Of a DNA stretch of 64,000 bases, positions 1,670 through 18,013 are shown in pieces. Position 1 is the stretch's first letter. Each line of letters begins with the position of its first letter. The stretch is taken from contig JAMASZ010000056.1 of assembly GCA_023301585.1 (NCBI GenBank), forward strand, positions 729-64,728, given 5' to 3'. The position numbers and the translations under genes are program-made. The notes beneath the pieces are model-generated. The model saw only the letters and a program-made list of their open reading frames with translations. It made no database searches and was not told the DNA's origin. This DNA comes from Alphaproteobacteria bacterium. GTDB lineage: Bacteria > Pseudomonadota > Alphaproteobacteria > Micavibrionales > Micavibrionaceae.

Positions 1670-2572
1670 TGCGTTCTCTGTGATCGGCGCGATGCAGAAG
1701 CGCAGACACCCGATGCTTATCTCGAACCTCATGATCAAAGGGTAGTTGGTCTTGAGGAAGAGCTCGACGTTGTTCGCCAGGGAGTTCTTGGTAAACTTTT
1801 CAATGTATCTCGCGAAGTATTTCCCCTCGATGTCACCCCCCTTCTCGCTGTGCTTCCAGTTGAGACCCGATGCGGTGGGCTCGATCGTGATATGACTCCG
1901 CGCCATCTCTCCCTCGGACACTAGCTCGAGCGTCGTTGTCGTCGCTCTTATCGTGATGAAAGGGCTCACGGTGACCATCTCGCGCACGTGCTTGGAGAGT
2001 TCCGTCGACGGCATGGAAACAACGCGATCGAACTCCACCTGCGGAATGATGATGTCCTCGGCGTCCAGGTCGAGGAGCTTGATGGAGTTCACTGTCTTGG
2101 TGCGCCTCTCGGAGTTTGACAGCTCGATCTCCATGCGGTGCGGCTCGTCCTCGTAAATTCGCCACTCCATAAAGTCGTTGGAGGTCATGGATCGTATCAT
2201 CTTGTAGAGCACCACGACGTTGATGCCTGCCGTGACGGTATCCTTGACGTAGAAACTCTCGATGTTGTTGACCACGAGATGAATCATGGCCACGCGCCCG
2301 GGGTCGATCGAAACGAGACGAATTCCCTTGCCTTCGATGAAGTCCATGTTCACCTCGCTCAGCAGCTCTTTCAGGCACTCTATCAGAGACTTGAACTGAA
2401 GACACTGCGACGTCTGCATGAGCAGCAGCAGCGGTCTGGTCTGCGAGGGTTGCTCTCTCGGACCCATGTTATTGGGCATGGTCTCCATCAGCGCGTCTGC
2501 TCCCATGCTACAGGTCATCGTGGCCACCCTGGAGGAATTGGTATTCGTGTCGGCACTGTGTTGTCGATCCAT
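1664..2572 (-). CDS. PCNA: Proliferating cell nuclear antigen (sliding clamp)
   Basis: PCNA-like over about 250 aa (LQFKSLIECLKELLSEVNMDF..GIRLVSIDPGRVAMIHL.. LELVSEGEMA..YPLIMRFEI). Track start 2650 is TTG; first ATG is 2572. ATG 2419 (MQTSQCLQFK) would give a canonical 252-aa clamp. Confidence 0.85.
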   Translation of the reverse strand: MDRQHSADTNTNSSRVATMTCSMGADALMETMPNNMGPREQPSQTRPLLLLMQTSQCLQFKSLIECLKELLSEVNMDFIEGKGIRLVSIDPGRVAMIHLVVNNIESFYVKDTVTAGINVVVLYKMIRSMTSNDFMEWRIYEDEPHRMEIELSNSERRTKTVNSIKLLDLDAEDIIIPQVEFDRVVSMPSTELSKHVREMVTVSPFITIRATTTTLELVSEGEMARSHITIEPTASGLNWKHSEKGGDIEGKYFARYIEKFTKNSLANNVELFLKTNYPLIMRFEISIGCLRFCIAPITENAS

Positions 2573-2668
2573 CTTGTCGTGTGTCTCCGGTTTTTCCGGT
2601 GCGTGAGTGACGGAAGGGTCTCTCCCCGTGTCCGATAATGTTTTCTTCAAACAAAATAATTGGTGTTG

Positions 2669-2947
2669 ATGCTCCGAGCGACTTCACCCTCATCTCTTGT
2701 CCACATGGACGAAGACTTGTCCATGGACGCTTGCTTCGACTACTTTCGACGAAAAGACTCCAAGGTTGACGTCCTGTGGGTCAAGGAGCAGATTTACAGA
2801 ACCTCGTGTGTCCCCGAGACGTGTCCGCCTACGCGATCACTGGTCGAGATCTTTCGTGAAAGAAGTGAACGAAGCGACAGCGACGACGAGGATGCAAATC
2901 TTGAAAAAGGAGAAATTGCTGAAATTTCTCTTTCTCGCGACAATTAA
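2669..2947 (+). CDS. Small acidic hypothetical protein
   Basis: Track ORF 2660 opens on TTG; ATGs at 2669 and 2705 (MDEDLSMDACFDYF..). Acidic tail SDSDDEDANLEKGE. Stop TAA 2945-2947 sits one base before the next gene's ATG. Confidence 0.4.
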   Translation: MLRATSPSSLVHMDEDLSMDACFDYFRRKDSKVDVLWVKEQIYRTSCVPETCPPTRSLVEIFRERSERSDSDDEDANLEKGEIAEISLSRDN

Positions 2948-2948
2948 A

Positions 2949-3425
2949 ATGTTTTTTTCAGTCAAGTATAAAGGAGTGGAACCCATGACGAGTCCGACAC
3001 AGCAGGTCTGTGAGTACATTGATAGCGACCTTCCGCAGAGCTTCGGTGCCAACACGATATCAGAGATGTACGCCGCTCTGCAGAAAGATCTAGAGTTTAT
3101 CCGGACCAAGGGCGGCGTCGTCGACGCGAAGAAGATGGAGATGATTCTGCACCAGAGGCACAAGAAGCTGGCGTTTTCCTACCCCGGCTTGTTTTTCAGG
3201 ATTGTGCGAGGGGAAGTTGATCCGGCGATGTTGCAATCGTTGCTTAAGCTCAAAGAAAACCTAGACGATCAAAGTATTTCTCTCGATGACGCAAGGAACA
3301 GAGTTATTGACTGCGCCAAGCAGCAGATCGAAGACACCAAAGGCACGCCTAGGGTAAAGAAGGCCAAGCCGTCCGGGACGGTCGTCCAGGAACTCAGTTT
3401 CAAGTGCAAGCCAGAAGACTCATAA
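2949..3425 (+). CDS. Hypothetical protein
   Basis: Track ORF 2697..3425. The part upstream of Met85 is Arg-rich and looks off-frame, overlapping the better 2669 ORF. ATG 2949 gives 158 aa (MFFSVKYKGVEPMTSP..). No family recognised. Confidence 0.5.
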   Translation: MFFSVKYKGVEPMTSPTQQVCEYIDSDLPQSFGANTISEMYAALQKDLEFIRTKGGVVDAKKMEMILHQRHKKLAFSYPGLFFRIVRGEVDPAMLQSLLKLKENLDDQSISLDDARNRVIDCAKQQIEDTKGTPRVKKAKPSGTVVQELSFKCKPEDS

Positions 3426-3448
3426 AACAATCAATTAATCTACTTTAC

Positions 3449-5047
3449 TTATTTGGAGACCTCGATCTCGGGTCCCTTCTCAGGTTCCTTCCCGGGCCCC
3501 TTTTTGGCCTTCTTTGCCACGGGGGGACCTTCCATTTCTTGACCCCTGGCCTTTGTTTCGGCCTTGGCAGCACTGGCCGCCGCCCTAGCCTTCTTGGCCT
3601 CGGCGGCACGAGCATCCTTGACATCCTGTGTTTCTTTCGGGAAGTGCGGGCCGAGAAGAGAACACATCTTGAAGTACGTGATGGGGCCAAAGTCGGCCGC
3701 GGGCTTGAGCAGCTTCAGCATGGCCTCGTCCGGCAGGATCTCGATCTTTTTGGCCGGGTTCTGCAGTCCGTTGGCCTTGACATAGTTGTTGAGTAGCTTC
3801 ACCGTGTGGGTACGAGACACCATGTGACCCTCTTCGAGCCCAAGGAAGTCTGTCAGCTCCTTCGACACGACTACGGGCTTGGCGATGCCGTGGCACGCAC
3901 GTGGGCCGTCCTTGTTCATTTTCCTCTTCTTGCGCTTGCGCCTGAGGTCGCCAAAGTCGGCCGTGTTGCTCCTTGCGAAAGACAAAACCACCAGGCGCAA
4001 CCATTCCGCGGGAAGGTCGGGGTCTTCGGAGCCCCAGTCGTACGAGATGGGCGACCTCATTTCGGCCAGCGACTTGGCGATCTGGGTCCACATCGGTTCG
4101 ACGGCCTTGAACTCCTTGACCCTCGTGTCTCTGTCGCTGTCGTCCGCCTGCGCCATCTTGGAAAGCGACGAGCACAGCGACTGCAGCTGCACCTTCTTTA
4201 GGGACCGCATGACCTTGTTCAGGCAGTTGGCGAGGCCGGTGTTGCTGCCGTAGCCCGGGCAGAACCCGCCGGGAACGTTCGGTCCGATGGAGTCAGTGTT
4301 CTTCTTCAGCGTCGATCCGAACACTTCCAGGACTTTAGCGGAAGGCTTGAGGTGCGCCGTTGTGATGTCGAGGAACTCTTCGGGGCGGTCGCACACCCAG
4401 GCCGGGTCCAGGTTGATGTTCTTCTTGGGCACGCTCCTCGACTTCTTGCCGAGCTCGGGCTTGCGAAGCACCTGGTACGGAAGCGTTCCCGCCTTTTCGT
4501 TCATGAGCTGGTCGAGAACGTCGCGTCCGCCCTTGCTCCCGAGCAAGAGATACTCGGTCGTCGGACGCGTGGAGCCCTTGTTGTCCATATCCTTCCAGTA
4601 CCTGGGGAGCGTCAGAGGGGGGCACCTGATCTTCTTGGCGCGCTTCACGGCTGGCTTCGCCGCGGGCTTGTCGACGGCAGCCTCGGACGTGGTCTCGGCG
4701 GTCTCGGCGGTCTCGGCAGTCTCGGTGGCACCAACGTCTTCCCCAGCCGCTGTTACGGGCAGGGTCTTGGGCTTGGGCTCCGGTGGAGGGTAGGTAGCGA
4801 CGTCGCAGACCTGGTACACGGAATCAAACTTGAATCCTTGAAGCTTGAACAGCTCGATCGCGTCTTGAATGGTGTACGTGTCGGCCCACATGTACAGGAG
4901 GGCCTCGTCTTTGGTCAGAGCCGATAAGTCGATCTTTCCCATCTGTTCCACAGAAAGCTTGTTCCAGGGGGTGTTGACATACAGCGCGTCGTACTTGGTG
5001 TCTTCGGAAGCCTTGAGCTGCGCGACGGCGGAGATAAAGTTGTCCAT
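3449..5047 (-). CDS. MT-A70-like N6-adenine methyltransferase fused to a C-terminal SWIB/MDM2 domain
   Basis: First ATG is 5047 (track start TTG). MT-A70 layout: YDALYVNTPW (DPPW-type motif IV), LLYMWADTYT, FKLQGFKF, TEYLLLGSKGG, RPEEFLDI..VLEVFG. C-terminal SWIB: SKELTDFLGLEEGHMVSRTHTVKLLNNYVKANGLQNPAKKIEILPDEAMLKLL. Confidence 0.75.
   Translation of the reverse strand: MDNFISAVAQLKASEDTKYDALYVNTPWNKLSVEQMGKIDLSALTKDEALLYMWADTYTIQDAIELFKLQGFKFDSVYQVCDVATYPPPEPKPKTLPVTAAGEDVGATETAETAETAETTSEAAVDKPAAKPAVKRAKKIRCPPLTLPRYWKDMDNKGSTRPTTEYLLLGSKGGRDVLDQLMNEKAGTLPYQVLRKPELGKKSRSVPKKNINLDPAWVCDRPEEFLDITTAHLKPSAKVLEVFGSTLKKNTDSIGPNVPGGFCPGYGSNTGLANCLNKVMRSLKKVQLQSLCSSLSKMAQADDSDRDTRVKEFKAVEPMWTQIAKSLAEMRSPISYDWGSEDPDLPAEWLRLVVLSFARSNTADFGDLRRKRKKRKMNKDGPRACHGIAKPVVVSKELTDFLGLEEGHMVSRTHTVKLLNNYVKANGLQNPAKKIEILPDEAMLKLLKPAADFGPITYFKMCSLLGPHFPKETQDVKDARAAEAKKARAAASAAKAETKARGQEMEGPPVAKKAKKGPGKEPEKGPEIEVSK
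4691..4726. repeat. 9-bp tandem repeat (GGTCTCGGC x4) inside the methyltransferase linker
   Basis: Read directly; encodes (ETA)n: ATETAETAETAETT on the minus strand. Confidence 0.8.
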
Positions 5048-5270
5048 GTTGGGTGCGTCGGAAGAGGATTTACTTTCTGGATACAAAATTTATTTCGATT
5101 CGCGAACGCGTCCAAAAGTTTGTTGAATTTCAGGTGATCGGTGGGTGGGCACGAGGAATGAGACGGTGGGGCTCGTGTGCGAAAAGAAAAGTCATTAATA
5201 AATAAAATATCGTAAAGTAGGAAGGATCGGGTGCCACTCACTCTCTCGCCAATCCTAAACCTAATAAACC

Positions 5271-6530
5271 ATGTTCACCGAAAAAAAAATCACGGTGTAC
5301 AGAATCGAAGGCTGTTCCGTGTGCGACGAGACCCTCGAGTATCTCAGGAAGAGAGATGTGTCGCCCGTGGTCTACGTCGTGAAGAGTGGCACCGACGACA
5401 TGGCCGAGCTGGTGGGAGTGACAAAGTGCTCGACGTTCCCTCAGATCTTTGTTGATTCTCAGTTCATCGGCGGGTTCAGCGAGCTGAAGAAGACGACCAT
5501 CGACCGTCCGACGGAGTTTAGGGCAAAGGAACTCTCCGGCGAAATCGCCGAGCCCATGTGCAGGGAGGAAAAGGACTTCGACAGGTTCATTATGTTCAAC
5601 GGCAAGACCGAGTACGAGTACGCAGACATCCACCAGCTCTACAAGAAGCAGACGGCATTGTTCTGGGTCGTCGAGGAGATCGATCTGTCGGGTGACTCCA
5701 AGGACTGGGATGATGCCTCGGACAACACAAGACACTTCCTCAAGCTCGTGCTGGCATTCTTCGCCTCTCTGGACCAGATCGTCATGGAGAACATCGGCCT
5801 CAACTTCAGGAACGAGATCGTCATCCCTCAGATTCGAAACCATTTCGCGATCCAAGAGGCCACCGAGGCCGTGCACGGCGAATCGTACGCCCTCCTGATT
5901 CAGACCTACTTCAAGGACATTGACGAGCAGAGGCACGTCATGCGCTCCGTGCAGACGATGCCCATCATCCAAAAGAAGGCGCTCTGGGCGGAGAAGTGGA
6001 TGAACCCCGAGACCGCGTCGCTCGCAGAGAGGTTGATTGGGTTCACCTGCCTCGAGGGCGTCCAGTTCAGCGGATCGTTCTGCGCCATCTACTGGCTCAA
6101 GAAGCAGCAGAAGTTCAAGGGTCTGTCTTTCGCCAACTCCCTCATCGCGAGGGACGAGGGTCTGCACGCGACCGCGTCGGTGCTGATCTACAAGCACCTC
6201 GTGCACAAGCTTCCGCAAGACAGAGTACACCAGATTTTTGAGCACGCGGTCGGCGTCGAGTGCGACTTCATCTCCGAGGCCCTGCCTGTCGCTCTCATCG
6301 GCATCAGCGAAACGAGCATGGCGGAGTACATCAAGTTTGTCGCCGACTACTGGTTGGTGCAGCTAGGGTACGACAAGGTGTACAACTGCGCCAATCCGTT
6401 CGAGTGGATGGATATGATTTCTCTGCAGGGGAAGACCAACTTTTTTGAGAATAGAGTCGCCGAGTACAGCAAGCCGGGAGTGTTGCTCGACCGCGAGGAA
6501 CAGCGGTTCTGCACGGACGCAGATTTTTAA
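5271..6530 (+). CDS. Ribonucleotide reductase small subunit (R2) with N-terminal glutaredoxin-like domain
   Basis: ATG 5271. N-terminal Grx/NrdH-like fold: VYRIEGCSVCDETLEYL..TFPQIFVDSQFIGGFSEL. R2 core: FWVVEEIDLSGD, FFASLDQIVMENI, EAVHGESYALLI, EGVQFSGSFCAIYWL, ARDEGLH. Acidic C-terminal tail ends ..CTDADF. Confidence 0.9.
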   Translation: MFTEKKITVYRIEGCSVCDETLEYLRKRDVSPVVYVVKSGTDDMAELVGVTKCSTFPQIFVDSQFIGGFSELKKTTIDRPTEFRAKELSGEIAEPMCREEKDFDRFIMFNGKTEYEYADIHQLYKKQTALFWVVEEIDLSGDSKDWDDASDNTRHFLKLVLAFFASLDQIVMENIGLNFRNEIVIPQIRNHFAIQEATEAVHGESYALLIQTYFKDIDEQRHVMRSVQTMPIIQKKALWAEKWMNPETASLAERLIGFTCLEGVQFSGSFCAIYWLKKQQKFKGLSFANSLIARDEGLHATASVLIYKHLVHKLPQDRVHQIFEHAVGVECDFISEALPVALIGISETSMAEYIKFVADYWLVQLGYDKVYNCANPFEWMDMISLQGKTNFFENRVAEYSKPGVLLDREEQRFCTDADF

Positions 6531-6627
6531 TTCGATGCGTGTGACCGTGGCAAACGAGAGCGTGAAAGCCATCAATAAAATATGTGTTTTACCTTAAAGG
6601 GGTTCCAATTCCAACCGAGCGATCGGT

Positions 6628-8133
6628 ATGGATGGTCGTACAGACCCGTTCCCGATGATGCCGCAAGATCTCCTGATTGATTTCAATCAGTTCTTGCCCA
6701 CTGCCGAAAGGCAGCGAGCAGTCGCTGTCTCTCGACAGTGGAGGGATGGTATCACGTGCCTGCCTTCTCGGGACGTTTACAGAACAAACCTTCCCTGCCC
6801 TCCTTACGCGAGCAGCGTTGAACAGACGGCCGGCGCGGATCGAAGGTGTTGTGCAGCGACCAATCCTTCCGATGTGCGCTTTCTGAAGGCGATGATCTCG
6901 ATCGGCCACCCCAGAATTCACGCCCCCAACGCTTTCGCCAAGGTGACCAAGGTGTTTGGCGAGAACTTCGCCACATGGTTCTTCCGGAACAAGAACGGGC
7001 TGGGCATCCAACCTTTCCCGCTGACGGCCACCATGCCGCTCGACAACACCGAGCCCTGGTTCGATATGTTTCTCCAGTTTCTTTTTCACGCGAGCGACAT
7101 TCCGAGTGTGCGGGAAGTCAGTGCGTCGGGCGCGGCGGTGAGCACCTACCTTTTGTACCACAAGTCGGTTGGCGCTGGCGGAGGACTTGGCGGAGGACTT
7201 GGCGGAGGACTTGGCGGAGGACTTGGCGGAGGACTTGGCGGAGGATTTGGCGGAGGATTTGGCGGAGGATTTGGCGGAGGATTTGGCGGAGGATTTGGCG
7301 GAGGATTTGGAGGAGGACTTGGCGGAGGAGGACTTGGCGGAGGAGGACTTGGCGGAGGCGGTTTCGGCCTCGCTGGACCGGCGGGACCCGTGCGTGGTGG
7401 AGGAGTTTGGGGACACTGGAACCTTGGTCCCGGCGTGCATGGTAGAAGAGTGAAGGCCCTGATGAAAAAAACGGGGGTCACCGGCGTCGTTGTCGAGGTT
7501 GGTTCCGAGGGCGCGGTTGACGACGAGGGAAAGGTGAAGCCCTTGAAACCCGTGGCGCTTCCGTTCACCACATATGTCCACACGAACGACCCCGCTGGTC
7601 ACAGCACCTTCTACGGCGCGACCCCGTATGACACGCACGGATACGTTGACATCACGCGCCTGCCAAACGTGCTGCGGCATCGCAAATGTGGATACGGTGG
7701 AACATCGACTCTTAACTATCAACACGTTGCCGTTTTCGACAAGAATTTGTTGTGGCACAACGTTCTGGCCGACATTGTCCTGGCCATGTCCAAAAGCGAG
7801 AACCGCCTCGTGGTGTTGGAGTTTGCTTTTGGCTTCGGACCCGCTGCACGTCGGGTGGCTGTACCCGGTAAAAACTTCTTTCCGGAATTCGCTTGCCCCC
7901 CCGCCAATCGCCCAGAAGCGTCGCTGATGGACAGCGCTGCCATCCAAGCGGGCGCTCAGCTAAGTACACTCGGTATTCAGCGTTCCGTGCGCGTCAGTCG
8001 AGCAGACCCGGCCGTCACTCGGTGGCGAATCGACGACAGTGTGTTGGCAAACACTCCGACGCCTAAGGAAATCATCACTATATCTCTGCTCTACGGCACG
8101 TCCGCGGTCAAAATTCAGAAGAGTCTTGTGTGA
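6628..8133 (+). CDS. Hypothetical protein with F-box-like N-terminus and (GGLG/GGFG)n glycine repeat
   Basis: ATG 6628. N-terminus MPQDLLIDFNQFLPTAERQRAVAVSRQWRD resembles an F-box. Central GGLGGGLG..GGFGGGFG tract. A 452-aa antisense ORF also stays open across the repeat, so the strand choice is tentative. Confidence 0.5.
   Translation: MDGRTDPFPMMPQDLLIDFNQFLPTAERQRAVAVSRQWRDGITCLPSRDVYRTNLPCPPYASSVEQTAGADRRCCAATNPSDVRFLKAMISIGHPRIHAPNAFAKVTKVFGENFATWFFRNKNGLGIQPFPLTATMPLDNTEPWFDMFLQFLFHASDIPSVREVSASGAAVSTYLLYHKSVGAGGGLGGGLGGGLGGGLGGGLGGGFGGGFGGGFGGGFGGGFGGGFGGGLGGGGLGGGGLGGGGFGLAGPAGPVRGGGVWGHWNLGPGVHGRRVKALMKKTGVTGVVVEVGSEGAVDDEGKVKPLKPVALPFTTYVHTNDPAGHSTFYGATPYDTHGYVDITRLPNVLRHRKCGYGGTSTLNYQHVAVFDKNLLWHNVLADIVLAMSKSENRLVVLEFAFGFGPAARRVAVPGKNFFPEFACPPANRPEASLMDSAAIQAGAQLSTLGIQRSVRVSRADPAVTRWRIDDSVLANTPTPKEIITISLLYGTSAVKIQKSLV
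7177..7358. repeat. 12-bp tandem repeat (GGCGGAGGAYTT)n, about 13-15 units
   Basis: Read directly: ggcggaggacttggcggaggactt.. switching to ..ggatttggcggaggattt.. Confidence 0.9.
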
Positions 8134-8140
8134 GGGAGAG

Positions 8141-8458
8141 ATGTGCGATCAAATTTTATTTGGTATTTGGTATATATATGGGGCCGCCATGCCGAGGTGG
8201 GGAAAGAAAGACGGCGGAGACACCTCTCTTTTAAAATTGATGGAAGATCTGAAGCAACAACAGACTCATCTCGTTGACAGCATCAAGAACGAGAAGGACG
8301 GTTCTGACCTCCGTGTGTCCGGCGTTTTGTCCGACCTCGAAACCTACATGTCGAAACTCGAAACGATAATCGAACGTCTCGCGAACGTTACCGAAGCTCT
8401 GGTCGAGCAGAGCGATGCGGCGCAAAAGCCTTGGTACGTGCGACTATTCTGCCCGTAG
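8141..8458 (+). CDS. Small hypothetical coiled-coil protein
   Basis: Track ORF 8039 is not ATG-initiated and overlaps the upstream gene. ATGs at 8141 and 8189 (MPRWGKKDGG..). Heptad-like LLKLMEDLKQQQTHLVDSIK..LETYMSKLETIIERL. Confidence 0.35.
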   Translation: MCDQILFGIWYIYGAAMPRWGKKDGGDTSLLKLMEDLKQQQTHLVDSIKNEKDGSDLRVSGVLSDLETYMSKLETIIERLANVTEALVEQSDAAQKPWYVRLFCP

Positions 8459-8467
8459 TTCGTTTCG

Positions 8468-9130
8468 ATGTCTCGTAAAATTATGTGTGTGGACCACACA
8501 AGACATCGAAAACCTCATACGCGAAAGATGCCGGAGTTGTTTTTCGATGTTGAGACAACGGGACTCCCCCCGAGAAAAGCAAGCCCGGCGACATTCCAAC
8601 AGTACGACTCGTGTCGCGTGGTGTCGATCGCGTGGGTGCTGAGGGACGAGAAAATGGTGTACTCGCAGAGGTATGCCGTGACCGACCCGGGCATTCCCGA
8701 CGAGACGATCGGCGCCGAGTTTGTGCACGGCATCTCGAGGCCCATCATGGACAAGTACGGGAGAAAAATCTCAGATGTCCTTGCCGACTTCGTGGCAGAT
8801 ATGAAGAACTCCGACAAGATTGTTGCGCACAACCTCGAGTTCGACAAGAGTGTGGTGTCGGCTGAGTTGTACAGAATGGGCCTTGCAAACGATGCCGCGG
8901 TTCTGATGGGCTTCAAGAACCTGTGCACGATGCGCAGCACGACGAATTTGGTCAAGATTCCCAACGCCTACGGGTCTTTCAAGTGGCCGAAGCTCGAAGA
9001 GCTGTACAAGTTTCTTTTCGGGCACGTCTTTGAGAACGCTCACCACGCCATGTGCGACGTCGACGCGCTGGTGGCGTGCTACTACAGGCTCGTCGAGAAG
9101 CACGGCTCAAACAAGAAGAACAAAAATTAA
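8468..9130 (+). CDS. DEDDh (DnaQ-like) 3'-5' exonuclease
   Basis: ExoI FFDVETTGLPP, ExoII IVAHNLEFDKSVV, ExoIII HHAMCDVDALVACYY. ATG 8468; alternative ATG 8528 lies just before ExoI. Confidence 0.85.
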   Translation: MSRKIMCVDHTRHRKPHTRKMPELFFDVETTGLPPRKASPATFQQYDSCRVVSIAWVLRDEKMVYSQRYAVTDPGIPDETIGAEFVHGISRPIMDKYGRKISDVLADFVADMKNSDKIVAHNLEFDKSVVSAELYRMGLANDAAVLMGFKNLCTMRSTTNLVKIPNAYGSFKWPKLEELYKFLFGHVFENAHHAMCDVDALVACYYRLVEKHGSNKKNKN

Positions 9131-12878: not shown

Positions 12879-14447
12879 TCAAGCCTTGTCGGCGTACGCC
12901 CATTTGAACCCAAACCTCTCGAGATCTCCACTGATTGCGGTCCTTAGTTTAACCCGACCAATCTTGAAATGGCGTGCGACTTCATCCATTGTACTGTACG
13001 TCCGCAAGACCTCCTTGGTCACAGGATCAAGTCTATTGATGGGCTTACTAGTTGCATTTGGAGCAAGCGTTGGAAGCGTGTTGCTTGCAAGCCATTTGTT
13101 TTGCACACTCTCCGACAATTCGCTCCACGATACCATGTGATACCCGCCGACCTTGGTCCCCCTTAAAGACCGTTTCTGAACGGCGCCCCCAGACTTAAAA
13201 TGGTGCGTGAGTGCACATGCTTTGAAAGATGTGTAAACATGATCAATATGGGTCTTGTCGTCGTTCAGAGCAGCGACATGACCTGTACGAATGCGAGTTT
13301 CAGAAACCGTGTCGCCTATGTCCTGAACGGTGTCGTCGGGTAGTGACCGACTCAGACGAGCCCAGCGATGGCCAAATCTGACAACTTTTTCCTCGCACGC
13401 TCGAAGAATTCCATTGTCAGAAGCGCCTTCTACGTCTCTAACCGCATCACGACGAGTGTTGTACGTGAACACAAGTTCCTTCCCATCTTCTGAGTACGCC
13501 TGGAACTTGTCGCCTGTTAGAGTACACCTTCCTCTCTTGCTCTCAGGTCGTACGTCCATGTTGTCAATATCATCGTTGACAGCTATTCCGTTTTTTTCCA
13601 GCAAGGCCCTGTAGCTTGGCTGCTCCAGAAGTGCTTCTCCGAATCCTTTTTGGTCAAATCGGAACCCGGACACACCACGCACGGCAATGTTAGCCGCACG
13701 CTTGACTTCTTCTCCGGTCATGCAAAACACCTCCATCGACCTCTTTCCGTTGATCGGTTCCTTGAAGAGGTATCGTCTGATGTCGACATGATTGTGCAGA
13801 AATTTCTCGAAATTCTCGTACTTGTCGCATTCGAAGACCTTGAAGATCGACATGCTCCCGAACTCCTTCACCAAGCCTGTCGTACGTGAGCGAATATTCT
13901 TCGTCGATCCGATTTTGACCAGAATGCTGTCGTCGTCCATGGTCATGATCTTGCCAAAGTAGACGCATGTCCTGTTCTCAAAACCTTCGATGAGAGTCTT
14001 GTGAATCCGTTCATCCTCAGAGTCCATGTACTTTCGGAGGAGAGCCTTCGCATCGGCATCGGCGTCCACTAGTGCTTCAGCGTGCTTACGTTTGAGCCCG
14101 GCAACCTCCTCCTCCAAAGCATACCTTCCTGTTTTTCGTATTGTCTTGAGAACGTGGAAGACCCAGTCCTGGAATGGCTTCGCGATGGGCTTTCTTGATC
14201 GCATGATGAGCTTGAACACCCCCTGTTCGGTGAGGAAAGTTGCCTCTTGATCGCCACCACGGGGGGTGTAAGCAGTACTTACGACTCTTTCGTGTTCGTC
14301 GAAATCTGCAATCGAAGGGCGTACATTTTTAATTGACAGCACTTTTCCGATGTCAGAAGCTTTAATCAGGGGGTCGCCATCGCCATCGCGTTGAATACAG
14401 ACCTCGTGAGACATTTGGTCGAAGACGAAGGTCTTCAGGATATCCAT
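12879..14447 (-). CDS. BRO-N / T5orf172 (MUG113-like) domain protein with C-terminal nuclease-associated DNA-binding repeats
   Basis: ATG 14447. BRO-N-like N-terminus (IKASDIGKVLSIKN..FLTEQGVFKLIMRSRKPIAKPFQDWV). T5orf172-like core (VYFGKI..VKIGSTKNIRSRTTGLVKEFG). Three C-terminal modules end in G(H/Y/F)(R/H/K)W (FGHRWARL, GGYHMVSW, FGFKWAYA). Confidence 0.8.
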   Translation of the reverse strand: MDILKTFVFDQMSHEVCIQRDGDGDPLIKASDIGKVLSIKNVRPSIADFDEHERVVSTAYTPRGGDQEATFLTEQGVFKLIMRSRKPIAKPFQDWVFHVLKTIRKTGRYALEEEVAGLKRKHAEALVDADADAKALLRKYMDSEDERIHKTLIEGFENRTCVYFGKIMTMDDDSILVKIGSTKNIRSRTTGLVKEFGSMSIFKVFECDKYENFEKFLHNHVDIRRYLFKEPINGKRSMEVFCMTGEEVKRAANIAVRGVSGFRFDQKGFGEALLEQPSYRALLEKNGIAVNDDIDNMDVRPESKRGRCTLTGDKFQAYSEDGKELVFTYNTRRDAVRDVEGASDNGILRACEEKVVRFGHRWARLSRSLPDDTVQDIGDTVSETRIRTGHVAALNDDKTHIDHVYTSFKACALTHHFKSGGAVQKRSLRGTKVGGYHMVSWSELSESVQNKWLASNTLPTLAPNATSKPINRLDPVTKEVLRTYSTMDEVARHFKIGRVKLRTAISGDLERFGFKWAYADKA

Positions 14448-14786
14448 GTTAGCTATTGATCTGTGAAAATATTAAAAAATCCCTGATTCAAACGCGATGT
14501 CTGATCGAAGAGAGAAGAGTGATTGAAATTGTTTGAATATATTTTTATTATTTCGTGATATTTGACCCCAAAGAGATCACATCACTTTCATTTTTGAAAA
14601 CAGCTTTCGCCGAAAAAAGGCGCAAACATTTGTCGAAAATGTTCAAAATGCGCAAAGTTGAGTTTACCCCCTGTAAGAGGCCTAATTGGAGTACCTGACT
14701 CCCCCCATCCCATCCTTGATACATTTTACAGTAAACTTTGGCAAACTTAAGGAGGCGAGCTCCAAAAACCGCCAAAAATGTTTACC

Positions 14787-15180
14787 CCCCATGCTTCCCG
14801 AGTTTCAATTTTCAATCCACTCGATCACATGAGGCATGTGCTCGACACAGGAGTAACCCTGGCTTACACAATACGGACTGTACATCAGGCCCCGTGGAAT
14901 GTTGTTTACAACAAACTTTAGGGACCCACTTTTGACCCAGTCTCTAGCGAAGAATACACATTCGTTTCCAAATGGTTCTCCGACGGTCTGGACCTACTCT
15001 GCCGTGGTAGCAGAGCACATCTTTGACCGTTTTCAAAAGCATTGCCTCTTTTAATGCTGTGGACTGTCGTCCACCTAGCACTACCCTCCGACTGAACGAA
15101 GTAAAAGTAGCGGACTAGATCCAGGTGGCTTGGTTGTTTCCAAGCCTTGTTTACAAAATGGGGCCTTGCGACACCACCTG
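14787..15180 (+). repeat. Copy U1 of a roughly 400-bp diverged dispersed/direct repeat
   Basis: Nine colinear conserved blocks are shared with 15634-16054. Examples: ccccatgcttcccgagtttcaattttcaatccactcgatcaca, cttttgacccagtctctagcga, atggttctccgacggtct, ctttgaccgttttcaa, ggactgtcgtcc, cggactag, gccttgcgac. Confidence 0.8.
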
Positions 15181-15597
15181 GACCTTTTTGGCAATCATGG
15201 ACTGGCCCAACACAATTGTTAGCGCCTGAAACATGTAGTTTACCAGTAGGTTGTAGGCTTCGTTGAAGACGATAACATCCGAGGTGGGGATGTTAGCGCC
15301 GTACTTGAGCTCGAGCTGCACGTGGTCGATGCGGCTCATGTTGAGAGTGGAAGTAGGGTTCCACACACCGCCCAGCGCGGCGAAGGTGAACAGGTAGGTG
15401 TAGCCGGCCGGAGTGTTGGGCCACTTGAGCGCGGGCTGCACCTGGCGGAAGAACAGGCCCGGGAGCGAATCCGGGAATCTGCTGTGTCCGTTCAGCGTTA
15501 GACTGGCCGCGGACACGGAATCTGTAACATCACCCCACATTCCTGCGGAGGCGTCGTCGACCTTGAACGGCGGCAATCTGTATAACTCCCCCTCCAC
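15151..15597 (-). pseudogene. Orphan C-terminal fragment of an NCLDV double-jelly-roll major capsid protein
   Basis: ASLTLNGHSRFPDSLPGLFFRQVQPALKWPNTPAGYTYLFTFAALGGVWNPTSTLNMSRIDHVQLEL..VIVFNEAYNLL fits the second MCP jelly-roll. The ORF opens on GTG after a stop and the N-terminal roughly 300 aa are missing. The MCP-like part is about 15244-15597; the tail runs into repeat U1. Confidence 0.7.
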
Positions 15598-15633
15598 GAT
15601 AAGAATCGACCTCTCTCAAAAAAGAGGAACGAC

Positions 15634-16054
15634 CCCCATGTGCTTCCCGAGCTTCAATTTTCAATCGACTCGATCACACACGGCCCACCCTCGTACTCGG
15701 AGTTACCCGAACTTGAGTGGGACTAGACTGTACATTAAGCCGCATAAGTTTCGAAAAACCCTTAGCGACCGACACTTGACCCAGTCGTTAGCGACAGAAT
15801 TCACCTCTTTCGAGATGGTTCCACCGACGGTCTCTGCACAAGGCTCCCGACGAGCCTCATACCTTTGACCGTTTTCAAGAGTCTCGCCCCGAGGTCGCAA
15901 AACCTCTCACCCGGACTGTCGTCCCGGTTATGTGCATCCAAGTCAAAAGACCCTGCGAATGACACACGGACTAGGTGGTTACAGTGTCACCGTTGGTTCG
16001 ATGAAGGGTGGCTCAACAAAATCCCCAAAAGCCTTGCGACCTTTCACCCACCTG
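15634..16054 (+). repeat. Copy U2 of the roughly 400-bp repeat
   Basis: Same nine blocks in the same order as U1 (ccccatgtgcttcccgagcttcaattttcaatcgactcgatcaca .. cacttgacccagtcgttagcga .. atggttccaccgacggtct .. ctttgaccgttttcaa .. ggactgtcgtcc .. cggactag .. gccttgcgac). Confidence 0.8.
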
Positions 16055-16194
16055 TTGACGGTTTGAGGTTAGCCGGCATGATTGATGTTTATAGTTGAGT
16101 TAAGTCTTGTCAACAAAATAATTTCAGAGACGGTCCAAATGTGTGTCTCAGTTTCGAGAAAAAATGTTGATGGAAACGTGAACAACAATAAATA

Positions 16195-16208
16195 CCGTAA
16201 ACATTGGC
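16195..16208 (+). promoter_or_regulatory. Orphan copy of the CCGTAAACATTGGC motif
   Basis: Identical core to the 16391 copy, 196 bp upstream of it. No ATG-initiated ORF follows. Confidence 0.35.
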
Positions 16209-16390
16209 CCGTTACGTCCCTCGTCCGTCTCCGCCGAAACTGCCGACTCCGCCGGCGGCTGTCGTACGGCGTGACGCAGGAGCGGTCGCCGCGCTCGCGG
16301 CGGCGTATTTTAGTTCAGTACTCGGGGTTCCGTGATATCCGCTGGTGCTGTGCCGGGTCTATATTGATGTTACGGGCCTCCAGATTTTTA

Positions 16391-16406
16391 CCGTAAACAT
16401 TGGCAA
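16391..16406 (+). promoter_or_regulatory. CCGTAAACATTGGCAA motif, candidate promoter element of the zinc-finger gene
   Basis: Lies 48 nt upstream of ATG 16439. A near-identical motif sits 51 nt upstream of ATG 18135. Confidence 0.4.
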
Positions 16407-16438
16407 GTTGTTTTGATTCACATCGTCATTCCAACACA

Positions 16439-18013
16439 ATGACTCTCCTCTGTCCCAGGTGCAACCATACTTTTCAAAGAACTAACGCATTCAGGCGACA
16501 CCAAAAGGATGGCTGTGGCGAAGACAAGCCGAGGATCAAGTGCGAGTACCCGTCGTGCGACAAAGATTATCGGACACAACAGTCGATGAAAACTCACTAT
16601 AAGACACACTTCGCGCAAATGTACGAGTGCGATGAGTGCGACAAGGTGTGTGACAACTATCAAAAACTCGCCCACCACAAGAAGGTCGAGCACAGGGGTG
16701 GTTACCCGTGCGACTTCGACGGATGCGACGAAAAGCGTGCAAGCAGGAAGAACATCATCAACCACATGAACACCTGCTCCTTTCGCCCGAGCGAGGTGAA
16801 TGATGTCGGAGAAGAACGCGACATCGTCGGTAACAAGAGGAAGATCGAGAGCCTGAGAGAAGAAGAGTCCGTTGTCACAGACTCCGACCCGGCTGATCCC
16901 GTTTGTGCTTTCATGCAGCGCATATCAGCCAAACTTAAAGATGGCAAGACGACAGACAAGATGTGTGCGAGCGTGACGATCTGCCCGGTCACAAACCTGG
17001 GGTACGGAATTCCTGGCGAGGTTTCGAAGTACTGTGGGAAACACAAGGATGAAGTTCACGGACTCAAGCAGCTCTACAGGCAGTGCATGTACACTGCTTG
17101 TGCGAAGACTGGGCACGATTTTGTGGGAGGACTTCGCTTCTGCCCCAAGCACGTCAAGCTTCTCATCGAGGACGGTCTTCCGAATCCCGATCTGTCTGTC
17201 GTCGTGATCAGCAATGGTCGCGTCACATGCGAGGAGCCAGGGTGTGACAAGAACGCGTCATACGGTCTTTCCGGAGAAAAAAGAGCGTCATGCGCTTCGC
17301 ACAAAAAGGATGGCTACATCCGCTCAATTACCCAAGTGTGTGCCATGGCTTGTTGCTGCACGTTGCCGGACGGACTGAGTGGTAGGTTTCTACACCCTGA
17401 GCATGATGACGAAGACTCCGAGTTTTACAAGAAGAAAATCTGCAACAACGGGCGCAGGGTTGTGATCGAAGATGCTCTGATGCGGAACGACGTCGGCAGG
17501 CTCAAGACTATCCTCGACCACTTCAAGTTGGACCGAGCACTGACTTTAAACGCTCAGAGCGCTTTTCGATTCGCTTGTGAGAAGGAGTGTTATGATCTCC
17601 TGCAGGACTGTGTTGACATCGTGTTTGACAAGCCCGTGGTCAACGGCCCCAAGGTGATTGGGTCCTTACGACCCGACATATTCTACAAGTGGTGCGTGGG
17701 CGGCGTTAATTTCGGGATTCATATCGAGTACGACGAGAATCGGTCACACGAGGACGACGACGTTCGTCTCAGGAGCATTGCATGTACAGCAAGCTGCACG
17801 GATCGCGTCTACGTCATTCGTGTGTACGGTGGCCACGACACGAAGAATCCAGTTTGCAGGCGTGTTCACATGAAGTATTACGAGTACTACAAGGTCACAG
17901 ATGAGGGTATGCGTGTTGCGCTGGAGGTCGCAAAATTGGTGAAGGAGCGTGTCGCCTGGATTAGGCAGGGTCTTGTGCCATGTGATTCGAGGGAATGGAA
18001 AATATGTATTTAA
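16439..18013 (+). CDS. C2H2 zinc-finger / EsV-1-7-type cysteine-repeat protein with C-terminal PD-(D/E)xK-like motif
   Basis: First ATG 16439. Four C2H2-like fingers (CPRCNHTF..H, CEYPSCDKDY..H..H, CDECDKV..H..H, CDFDGCDE..H..C). C-x4-C-x13-16-C-x2-H repeats (CMYTACAKTG..FCPKH; CEEPGCDKNASYGLSGEKRASCASH). C-terminal ..SLRPDIFY..FGIHIEYDENRSHED. Confidence 0.75.
   Translation: MTLLCPRCNHTFQRTNAFRRHQKDGCGEDKPRIKCEYPSCDKDYRTQQSMKTHYKTHFAQMYECDECDKVCDNYQKLAHHKKVEHRGGYPCDFDGCDEKRASRKNIINHMNTCSFRPSEVNDVGEERDIVGNKRKIESLREEESVVTDSDPADPVCAFMQRISAKLKDGKTTDKMCASVTICPVTNLGYGIPGEVSKYCGKHKDEVHGLKQLYRQCMYTACAKTGHDFVGGLRFCPKHVKLLIEDGLPNPDLSVVVISNGRVTCEEPGCDKNASYGLSGEKRASCASHKKDGYIRSITQVCAMACCCTLPDGLSGRFLHPEHDDEDSEFYKKKICNNGRRVVIEDALMRNDVGRLKTILDHFKLDRALTLNAQSAFRFACEKECYDLLQDCVDIVFDKPVVNGPKVIGSLRPDIFYKWCVGGVNFGIHIEYDENRSHEDDDVRLRSIACTASCTDRVYVIRVYGGHDTKNPVCRRVHMKYYEYYKVTDEGMRVALEVAKLVKERVAWIRQGLVPCDSREWKICI

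Follow-up and report, generated by a model that had tools for sequence, protein, structure and literature searches.

The major capsid protein (MCP) gene of the window, as we call the whole 64-kb stretch of DNA analysed here, is most probably (we put this at about 0.8) the syntenic capsid gene of its locus, disabled by one recent deletion, or by a variant of that kind that arose in assembly, in a gene built of three exons and two introns. The window would come from a kelp-associated phaeovirus-like giant virus, or from an integrated copy of one. Its single MCP gene would lie on the minus strand, flanked by EsV-1-7 and Bro-N genes, and would consist of exon 1 (ATG CCG GC), a main exon of ~1.34 kb and an exon 3 that forms a 40-nt tail, with two paralogous group I-type introns of ~0.5 kb between the three. 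Read along the gene, the features of the locus are:

16400-18013, plus strand: EsV-1-7 cysteine-rich / C2H2 protein, the upstream neighbour (Pfam; same position in relatives L003 and L005)
16072-16079, minus strand: putative MCP exon 1, ATG CCG GC, which reads Met-Pro-Ala once exon 2 adds its first base
15597-16071, minus strand: right copy of a repeat labelled U1, a 475-nt group I-type intron (intervening sequence 1)
15566-15596, minus strand: main MCP exon, 5′ remnant (GGGVIQIAAV codons), matching L005 up to the deletion junction
15565-15566, no strand: deletion junction, 983 bp absent (L005 6449-7431), frame-shifting
15242-15565, minus strand: main MCP exon, 3′ remnant (second jelly-roll, ...WGDVTD...YNLLV; PF04451, HMM)
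14722-15241, minus strand: left copy of repeat U1, a 520-nt group I-type intron (intervening sequence 2)
14682-14721, minus strand: MCP exon 3, T ATC AAG GAT GGG ATG GGG GGA GTC AGG TAC TCC AAT TAG
15151-15597, minus strand: flagged ORF, an accidental frame
12879-14447, minus strand: Bro-N / T5orf172 protein, the downstream neighbour (Pfam; protein 100% identical in a relative)

The original prediction was built on the flagged ORF, which has 148 codons and a GTG start in the ORF listing of the window, and described it as an orphan C-terminal piece of an NCLDV MCP. Its assignment to the second jelly-roll holds, as the ORF matches Pfam Capsid_NCLDV PF04451 with E=1.9e-23 over profile positions 78-188 of 196 (83.7 bits against a curated cut-off of 34.8) and aligns with the second jelly-roll of PBCV-1 Vp54 in a PDB search. 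The 3′ remnant of the main exon matches positions 342-447 of a 459-position MCP profile HMM in a six-frame search (E=1.8e-44) and is 60-68% identical to brown-alga MCP fragments. That the 64 kb lack an intact MCP is likewise borne out, since neither tblastn with 14 MCPs nor the six-frame profile-HMM search finds another MCP in the window. The piece is not alone, however. The conserved N-terminus GGGVIQIAAV is found by tblastn at 15566-15595, in a frame other than that of the flagged ORF and 8/8 identical to P0010, and the canonical tail IKDGMGGVRYSN with its stop lies at 14682-14721, ~520 nt downstream and likewise outside that frame, where it matches HMM positions 443-459 of 459 and agrees with the C-termini of many MCPs; in translation, exon 3 first finishes a Val and then gives this tail and the stop. 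About 300 N-terminal residues had been thought missing, which is close in size (~328 codons are gone) but not in place, because the gap is internal, spanning approximately residues 14-341, and the N-terminus is kept. The N-terminal jelly-roll, PF16903, is absent from the window and present in an otherwise identical relative, because the 983-bp deletion took it.

The flagged ORF is an accidental frame in which N-terminal codons, read out of frame, lead into what is left of the second jelly-roll and then on into intron 2. Its 30 'unrelated' C-terminal residues and its stop come from the first 90 nt of intron 2, and that stop codon also closes the gene call of 453 aa made in the intact relative. 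What follows ...YNLLV is thus indeed non-canonical, but it does not replace the proper terminus, which is displaced by ~520 nt of intervening sequence. In the same way the GTG start, although real, is no mark of a remnant, as the missing ATG would reflect an upstream mini-exon. Elsewhere in the window, ORF 2697-3425 has weak second-jelly-roll similarity (tblastn E=0.002) and no Pfam match.

A full-length MCP occupies the same locus in bull-kelp metagenomes. It is present in ENA scaffold_21 and in Logan contig L006, and megablast of scaffold_21 and the Logan contigs against the window gives 0 mismatches over ~29 kb around the MCP locus; otherwise the window was seen to differ from its relative by a 12-nt indel, in its tandem-repeat content and by 2 mismatches near 62-64 kb. 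In the intact relative, a 453-aa gene call with Capsid_N and Capsid_NCLDV domains, 74% identical to the FsV-158 MCP, sits where the window has its remnant, and it adjoins Bro-N/T5orf172 and EsV-1-7 genes as the remnant does. The Bro-N adjacency is kept, with an EsV-1-7 gene upstream, in L171, whose MCP identity is only 78%. The proposal that this is the syntenic capsid locus is supported by the intact MCP found here both in zero-mismatch contigs and in the 78%-identity lineage. The other option that had been raised, a partial duplicate of an MCP located elsewhere in the genome, is barely conceivable: the two flanking repeats that at first hinted at duplication are the gene's own two introns, its start region and tail exon stand on either side of the fragment, the exact locus holds an intact gene in identical and diverged relatives, and no other MCP is found in the window or in the flanks, for which a collinear relative supplies 4.7 kb on the left and 7 kb on the right.

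Aligned to L005, the locus is 100% identical save for one 983-column gap, and not one substitution occurs over its 1,991 bp. The two HSPs given by megablast abut at 15566, and the junction of the deleted allele, GACCTTG/AACGGCGG, shows microhomology of 1 nt and is free of repeats that could mislead an assembler. An intron-like identity of the deleted segment was checked and rejected, its ends not being GT-AG on either strand. Because there is one clean 983-bp deletion without substitutions, the event is, judged from the assembled alleles, either very recent, a co-existing variant or one that arose at the assembly level. Lying within the main exon, it removes approximately residues 14-341 in this contig and shifts the frame, which makes this a null allele, and a spliced mRNA of the deleted allele would stop after ~25 codons. 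The original prediction had also weighed splicing that restores a full-length MCP; splicing would restore the C-terminus, but the deletion is beyond such repair.

Since the two sides of the junction share no repeat and just 1 nt, a graph assembler requires junction-spanning reads to make this join, and the window contig is not simply the same assembly as its relatives, as its 12-nt indel and tandem-repeat differences suggest that the source may be a different sample or population. Both points argue against an artefact of assembly or library preparation, under which the real genome would have an intact MCP and no natural orphan fragment. We nevertheless grant an artefact a minor but appreciable chance, as the deletion allele is found in one public contig only, whereas the intact gene is in both an ENA assembly of a bull-kelp sample and a Logan assembly of run SRR17046544 (project PRJNA783443), in otherwise identical sequence, and L006 crosses both breakpoints without a branch. 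The junction 25-mer was not found in genome, metagenome or viral collections. If present in real molecules, the deletion would mark a defective genome or provirus copy beside intact ones.

The lesion looks quite different from slow decay. The original prediction mainly took the fragment for a long-standing capsid pseudogene that is eroding within an endogenised provirus, a reading that we now consider very unlikely. The gene is non-functional as assembled, brown-alga genomes contain many degenerate viral insertions (PMC11890097) and the related samples are 39-50% kelp DNA, all of which would suit that reading. However, there are 0 substitutions relative to the intact allele at the locus or over ~29 kb around it; what is left of the MCP gene matches that allele at 100%, as does the DNA on either side, the start region and tail exon are unharmed, as are the two introns, and the adjoining core genes are intact, as had been noted. 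Furthermore, the supposed marks of decay are normal features common to FsV-158 and a 335,593-bp contig that we take to be EsV-1. The foreign C-terminus and repeat U1, which had been counted among these marks, are explained by an intron that the reading frame runs into, one also carried by intact relatives, by FsV-158 and by the presumed EsV-1 contig.

The two copies of repeat U1 are paralogous intervening sequences of ~0.5 kb with a covariation-supported group I core. The core profile matches intron 1 at 15721-15900 (E=1e-44) and intron 2 at 14873-15053 (E=2e-45). An alignment of the introns predicts 107 pairs, 70 of them with compensatory changes. Set against controls, 109 pairs in 16 helices are 91.3% paired and 69 show double changes; shuffling gives 74% paired, with 0/500 shuffles attaining these figures, and slid controls give 34-48%. 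All of P7 is paired (100%), with covariation at 2 of its pairs, and the P7 pseudoknot covaries. The helix names follow the general architecture of group I introns, and P/Q/R/S-like conserved elements are seen in the introns. Two other origins for the repeats were considered and rejected, namely that the MCP 5′ region was duplicated in tandem and then suffered deletions, and that a MITE inserted and duplicated its target site (TACTG(G)TAAA is present at either end of intervening sequence 2), as in the relatives the two paralogues prove to be old, structured and inherited vertically.

Rfam's group I model, RF00028, has no match at E<=10 in window positions 14400-16500, none at E<=5 in L009, L010 and L012, and none at the gathering score in L017 and L026, while it does find other introns in L025 and L031. 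A homing endonuclease was sought in the introns and not found, and the ORFs overlapping them have no Pfam match.

The exon boundaries point in the same direction as the core. In 11/11 introns a wobble (U.G in eight, C.A in three) and at least three Watson-Crick pairs occur at one aligned guide position, and across the 11 the guide sequence changes along with the 5′ exon. A C.A pair at the splice site is tolerated by the Tetrahymena ribozyme. In P1 of the window's intron 1, exon GCCGGC pairs with guide ACCGUC with C.A at the splice site, and in that of intron 2, exon ACUGGU pairs with guide GCCAA with U.G there, although the aligned guide of this intron yields only 4 pairs; both introns end in G. 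A terminal G (omega-G) is found in 10/10 measured introns with boundaries set to restore the canonical protein, a count to be read in the light of the fact that the terminal-G rule guided the choice where a 1-nt repeat made boundaries ambiguous. Removal of the introns at the predicted sites brings the canonical MCP termini back in frame, and joining the intron 2 exons at U/...G/ gives YNLLVIKDGMGGVRYSN, with spacing as in uninterrupted homologues and contiguous in P0163. At the start of the gene, MPA is the conserved MCP beginning and all relatives examined have an upstream MPA mini-ORF; in L171, an in-frame stop five codons past the ATG forces the boundary right after ATGCCGGC(T). We infer that exon 1 (ATG CCG GC) would be used as the MCP start, that the exon junctions would be ...GCCGGC/UGGAGG... 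and ...CUGGU/UAUCAAGG..., and that the intervening sequences would be removed by group I self-splicing.

Ordinary spliceosomal introns, or transposon-derived insertions, are an unlikely substitute for group I introns here, though there are several reasons to consider the former. Phaeoviruses replicate in the nucleus; a study of EVEc, an active Ectocarpus phaeovirus, shows by RNA-seq that the MCP is spliced and reports spliceosomal introns in 14 genes, the MCP included, assigned to the spliceosome from splice-site logos (PMC13236599). Every copy of intron 2 starts G/GTAAA, an in-frame GT-AG solution for intron 1 exists in the window and in L009, and the Rfam search returned no group I match. 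These solutions do not extend across the family: an apparent 5′ splice site, ACAG/GTGGGT, has GA in place of GT in L009 and L010, the phase-2 GT-AG solution, which would add 14 residues and fits the window and L009, is excluded by the L171 stop codon, and intron 1 of L012 has no in-frame AG. For intron 2 of the window, the GT-AG option would remove three conserved residues. GT-AG boundaries that leave homologous coding sequence in frame are thus lacking for window intron 2 and for intron 1 of L012 and L171. Moreover, a spliceosomal intron needs no 109-pair covarying core, P3/P7 pseudoknot or exon-tracking guide.

Interrupted MCP genes are shared among the relatives of the window. The three-part gene is found in five further lineages (78-96% MCP identity), FsV-158 and the 335,593-bp contig, and intron orthologues are found in FsV-158, the presumed EsV-1 contig and four kelp-associated lineages. 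The interruption after YNLLV also occurs in L009 and L010, and the introns sit at different nearby codons in different lineages, as expected of a mobile intron. The searchable literature yielded no report of group I introns in this host gene and virus group.

A more far-reaching account would have phaeovirus capsid genes, those of EsV-1 and FsV-158 included, depend on a previously unrecognised mobile group I lineage whose introns hopped between adjacent codons at both ends of the gene, sometimes with a C.A wobble. By this account the 'spliceosomal' MCP intron of Ectocarpus would be a self-splicing ribozyme, reference MCP annotations would be truncated or have false C-termini, and the window would represent a natural capsid-less genome, maintained in kelp alongside intact copies by complementation or as a provirus. 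Taken jointly, these claims are tentative, and we rate their all being right at a little under even odds.

The more secure reading, a syntenic gene with one deletion and two introns, already has consequences. The capsid-lacking appearance of the window comes from one recent 983-bp deletion in one assembly and says little about endogenisation, because an intact, otherwise identical allele exists. An interrupted MCP gene, hitherto taken to show that a virus is decaying, is normal for phaeoviruses and is found also in FsV-158, an isolated virus; such interruptions resemble group I ribozymes and are missed by standard tools. Annotations need to be corrected, since the FsV-158 MCP is short by 25 N-terminal residues and several gene calls have false C-termini, and MCP-based PCR, phylogeny and calls on provirus function in brown algae are affected. 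The family also lends itself to tests of how ribozyme introns move about inside a late gene that is essential to a virus replicating in the nucleus.

Among known systems, the nearest for the protein is the NCLDV double-jelly-roll MCP (PF16903 plus PF04451; Vp54; FsV-158). The intact allele has both domains and, after intron removal, shares the termini MPAGGGVIQIAA... and ...YNLLV(I/V)K(D/E)GMGGVRYSN, while the window's gene differs in lacking the first jelly-roll, in its broken frame and in its three exons. With group I introns, the intervening sequences share the helix order P3, J3/4 (AAA), P4, P5, P6, J6/7, P7, P3′, P8, P7′, P9, the P3/P7 pseudoknot, a wobble at the 5′ splice site in P1 with an internal guide and the terminal G; they differ in that RF00028 does not score them, that they have no intron ORF or homing endonuclease and that three copies have C.A rather than U.G at the splice site. 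Group I introns reportedly occur in protein-coding genes of chloroviruses, phage protein-coding genes carry them too, and L025 has Rfam-recognised group I introns inside another NCLDV MCP gene.

Endogenous elements of the Porterinema fluviatile type (PMC11890097) resemble the window in being brown-alga-derived viral regions without a usable MCP. Those elements are silent and have several core genes lost or frame-shifted, whereas the window has one lesion, 0 substitutions and an intact allele. Introns in core genes have been counted as a mark of non-functionality (PMC11890097), and the intron-containing MCP family argues against such use. EVEc (PMC13236599) shares with the window a phaeovirus MCP that requires splicing, in a virus that still makes particles, so an interrupted MCP is no sign of decay; the window differs from EVEc in that its protein-restoring boundaries are not GT-AG and a ribozyme-like core is present.

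The flagged ORF matches the Pfam family Capsid_NCLDV (83.7 bits, E=1.9e-23) over profile positions 78-188 of 196 only, aligns with the second jelly-roll of PBCV-1 Vp54 in a search of solved structures, and gave 297 matches in an exhaustive phmmer search, every one over the C-terminal 100-130 residues of proteins the size of an NCLDV major capsid protein (MCP). No other MCP was found in the 64-kb window, either by tblastn with 14 diverse MCPs or by a six-frame profile-HMM search. The original prediction was thus right that this is an MCP C-terminal match and that the window has no intact MCP, but the fragment is not an orphan, because the N-terminus and tail of the gene are also there, in other frames:

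15151-15597, minus strand: flagged ORF, 148 codons, GTG start immediately after a stop
15595-15554, minus strand: conserved MCP N-terminus GGGVIQIAAV, frame shifted relative to the flagged ORF
14685-14738, minus strand: MCP extreme C-terminus, matched in the MCP searches, reading ...IKDGMGGVRYSN and then a stop

With both pieces present beside the flagged ORF, both gene ends are retained and the missing part is internal. The C-terminal piece corresponds to positions 443-459 of the 459-position HMM in the six-frame search, so the canonical MCP ending, previously thought to be replaced by unrelated residues, is instead displaced ~520 nt downstream.

Exact-protein look-ups with neighbour genes led to a 140,886-bp ENA scaffold (ERZ23499811, WEIG22-1_SAMN23429948_METAG-scaffold_21) and to Logan contigs of run SRR17046544. 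The BioSample belongs to a set of seven blade metagenomes from bull kelp (Nereocystis luetkeana), sequenced by HiSeq 2x150, whose tissue assemblies contain 39-50% kelp DNA (PMC9238374). Over ~29 kb around the MCP locus these contigs match the window without a single mismatch, and they carry, exactly between the Bro-N/T5orf172 and EsV-1-7 genes, a 453-aa gene call with Capsid_N and Capsid_NCLDV. Window 14448-16438 is 100% identical to 5331-8304 of L005, which carries the intact gene, apart from one 983-column gap between window 15565 and 15566, where there is 1 nt of microhomology but no repeat on either side. The gap length is not divisible by three, which accounts for the shift in frame from the N-terminal codons to the flagged ORF; full-length MCPs can be aligned to the intact relative in a single frame, from residue 4-5 through ...NLLV. 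In the collinear relative, the sequence flanking the window (4.7 kb on the left, 7 kb on the right) holds no second MCP, and the order EsV-1-7, MCP, Bro-N also occurs in L171, a lineage whose MCP is only 78% identical. Judged from these alignments, the window locus is best read as the sole MCP, in its syntenic position, whose inactivation is due to a single very recent deletion and not to decay. The intact MCP in the same place in relatives, including the diverged L171, agrees with the earlier placement of the syntenic capsid gene here, but not with its description as decayed, and an eroded relic is rejected because the locus is otherwise identical to the intact allele. A partial duplicate was likewise rejected, given the intact gene at the same locus in relatives and the lack of a second MCP in the window or its flanks.

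The deleted allele is found in one public contig only, the 69,460-bp NCBI record, and two other assemblies carry the intact gene, as might be expected if the 983-bp deletion were an assembly artefact. Such an origin is nevertheless unlikely, as repeat collapse does not yield joins with so little microhomology (1 nt), and for the same reason junction-spanning reads probably exist. We consider it likely that the deletion is a real variant, which could be a defective genome or provirus copy alongside intact ones. Transcription of the intact gene from a point upstream of 16079 would produce a pre-mRNA, and excision of intron 1 (16071-15597) and of intron 2 (15241-14722) would leave an ORF of ~461 codons, MPA-GGGVIQ...YNLLV-IKDGMGGVRYSN. 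The deletion in the window contig would fuse codon 13 out of frame with codon ~341, partway through the latter, and a ribosome would meet a stop at 15530-15532, after ...IAAVQGRRRLRRNVG. The 148-codon ORF lacks an ATG at its start and would not be expected to be expressed as such. As predicted from its reading frames, the deleted allele cannot supply capsid protein. Viewed as a capsid-less provirus, the finding is ordinary and may be specific to this assembly; the value of the locus is that it exposes what appears to be a family of group I-type introns in phaeovirus MCP genes that is unannotated and escapes Rfam.

The intact relative has the ~520-nt interruption after ...YNLLV too, and there the gene caller reads through to the same stop codon. 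The full main exon as query retrieves relatives at 63-96% identity. Uninterrupted homologues start MPAGGGVIQIAA... and end ...YNLLV(V/I)K(E/D)GMGGVRYSN, and many others are called from an internal MTLFK or bear odd N- or C-terminal read-through peptides. The DNA of the lineages L009, L010, L012, L013 and L171, of FsV-158 (L014, EU916176.1) and of L026 (a 335,593-bp IMG/VR contig, presumably EsV-1) holds the same three-part gene: a mini-exon upstream that begins ATG CCN GCN, then the main exon and, wherever the 3' interruption occurs, a tail exon set apart from it. The interruptions fall at these sites:

Upstream, MPA / GGGVIQ: window, L009, L171
Upstream, MPAGGGV / IQIAA: L010, L012, L013, FsV-158
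Downstream, YNLLV / IKDGMGG: window, L009, L010
Downstream, GMGG / VRYSN: L012, L013, L026

Between lineages, orthologous intervening sequences share 69-84% identity, and the two within one genome are ~50-59% identical overall (75-77% over the repeat blocks found first). The higher identity between orthologues indicates that they are old, inherited parts of a gene still under selection. An in-frame ATG ahead of GGGVIQIAA is absent in the window and intact alleles alike; this, the foreign C-terminus and repeat U1, once taken as marks of a remnant, are normal intron features common to intact relatives.

In FsV-158 (2473-3000), the annotated MCP (435 aa) begins at an internal Met; its true start, ATG CCT GCA GGT GGA GGG GT, is ~470 nt upstream, beyond an unannotated intron of this family over which a 122-aa ORF without a Pfam match is called on the opposite strand. 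L026 (39-2770) has three intron-core matches around the main exon: two upstream (39-212 and 548-728), a hint that two introns may interrupt the short N-terminal coding part, and one between GMGG and a separate VRYSN* tail. This locus begins inside the first intron copy, so exon 1 lies outside the sequence covered.

A consensus structure from an alignment of eight intron copies has 107 pairs, 70 with compensatory changes. With an added pseudoknot helix, GACUG/CAGUC (GAACG/CGUUC in two copies), 91.3% of positions pair, versus 73.7% in shuffled sequences (0/500 shuffles reach it) and 34-48% with partners slid; 69 pairs are doubly changed, versus 14-31 in slid controls. The helices run P3, AAA, P4 (invariant ACGGUC/GACCGU), P5, P6, junction, P7, P3', P8, P7', P9, with names assigned by analogy to group I introns, and together with elements like the classical P, Q, R and S boxes this order matches group I architecture. 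At the boundaries that restore the canonical protein in frame, the 5' exon ends in U (C in three copies) and the intron in G. A guide sequence at one aligned position, 9-55 nt into the intron, pairs with the last 5'-exon bases and changes with them (exon / guide):

AGGGGU / GCCCCU
GGGGGU / GCCUCC
GGCGGU / GCCGCC
(C/U)UGGU / GCCAA
GCCGGC / ACCG(G/U)C

The splice-site pair is a wobble in 11/11 introns, U.G in eight and C.A in three, and C.A can stand in for U.G in the Tetrahymena ribozyme. We put the probability that these putative ribozymes are group I introns at about 0.8. A core profile search of the window finds two copies only, both at the MCP locus, and the P4 pattern occurs in 36 IMG/VR contigs and >120 metagenome contigs. 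In the literature searched, we found no paper linking group I introns to phaeoviruses.

Against this assignment, Rfam RF00028 scores none of the intron copies searched, although it detects other introns in neighbouring positions of the viral metagenome contigs L025 and L031, one inside another NCLDV MCP, and the intervening sequences contain no recognisable ORF. A single RNA-seq study covers a phaeovirus; it reports that the MCP is spliced but labels the introns spliceosomal (PMC13236599). For the introns described here, a spliceosomal reading breaks down at L012, whose intron 1 has no in-frame AG, at the window's intron 2, where the GT-AG option removes three conserved residues, at two copies in which the candidate GT is GA, and at L171, where a stop five codons after the ATG rules out the one GT-AG pair that would keep intron 1 in frame.

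The gene content is phaeovirus-like across the whole window, where long intact ORFs encode PCNA, a SWIB/MT-A70 protein, RNR small subunit with glutaredoxin, exonuclease, hybrid histidine kinases, a Ser/Thr kinase, a D5-type primase-helicase, PolB, VLTF3 and RFC. A 242-aa ORF without a Pfam match (2697-3425, plus strand) weakly resembles the second jelly-roll of MCPs (tblastn E=0.002 to the MCP P0002, weaker matches to P0007 and P0009), and may be the penton-like gene named in the original prediction or a minor single-jelly-roll capsid protein. The motif TACCGTAAACATTGGC is repeated upstream of the EsV-1-7 gene (16193-16213 and 16389-16409, 90% alike), with a weaker copy at the intron 2 / exon 3 boundary (14727-14747), and may be a promoter-type element. 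Besides the deletion, the assemblies differ by 2 mismatches near 62-64 kb and at two further places. A 12-nt in-frame indel within 2867-9118, probably at 7205-7329, makes ORF 6628-8133 501 aa versus 497 aa in the ENA scaffold, and two Logan contigs break in the indel interval. The tandem-repeat content differs at ~61.6-62.5 kb, where an array of ~78-bp units, 91-95% alike (61587-62460), lies inside ORF 61080-63305 (741 aa); the ENA scaffold is ~130 nt shorter there, with 100 nt left unaligned, and the Logan contig stops where the array begins to be reached, so its copy number is uncertain or variable between assemblies.

A Bro-N and T5orf172 (GIY-YIG-like) protein adjoins the intron-bearing MCP in the window (12879-14447, minus strand) and in the diverged L171 (4659-6209), and one possibility is that it acts as a free-standing homing endonuclease for these introns, which have no ORF of their own. 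In FsV-158, however, this position is taken by a ResT/TelK-type (telomere-resolvase) gene. In L025 (487-4493) and L031 (5650-7903), four to five group I introns are clustered within a few kb; RF00028 recognises some of them (70-92 bits), while others are picked up only by the profile made in this study, and one Rfam-recognised intron of L025 splits an NCLDV MCP between residues ~200 and ~199. From such sequences, MCP genes look like intron hot-spots far beyond the phaeoviruses.
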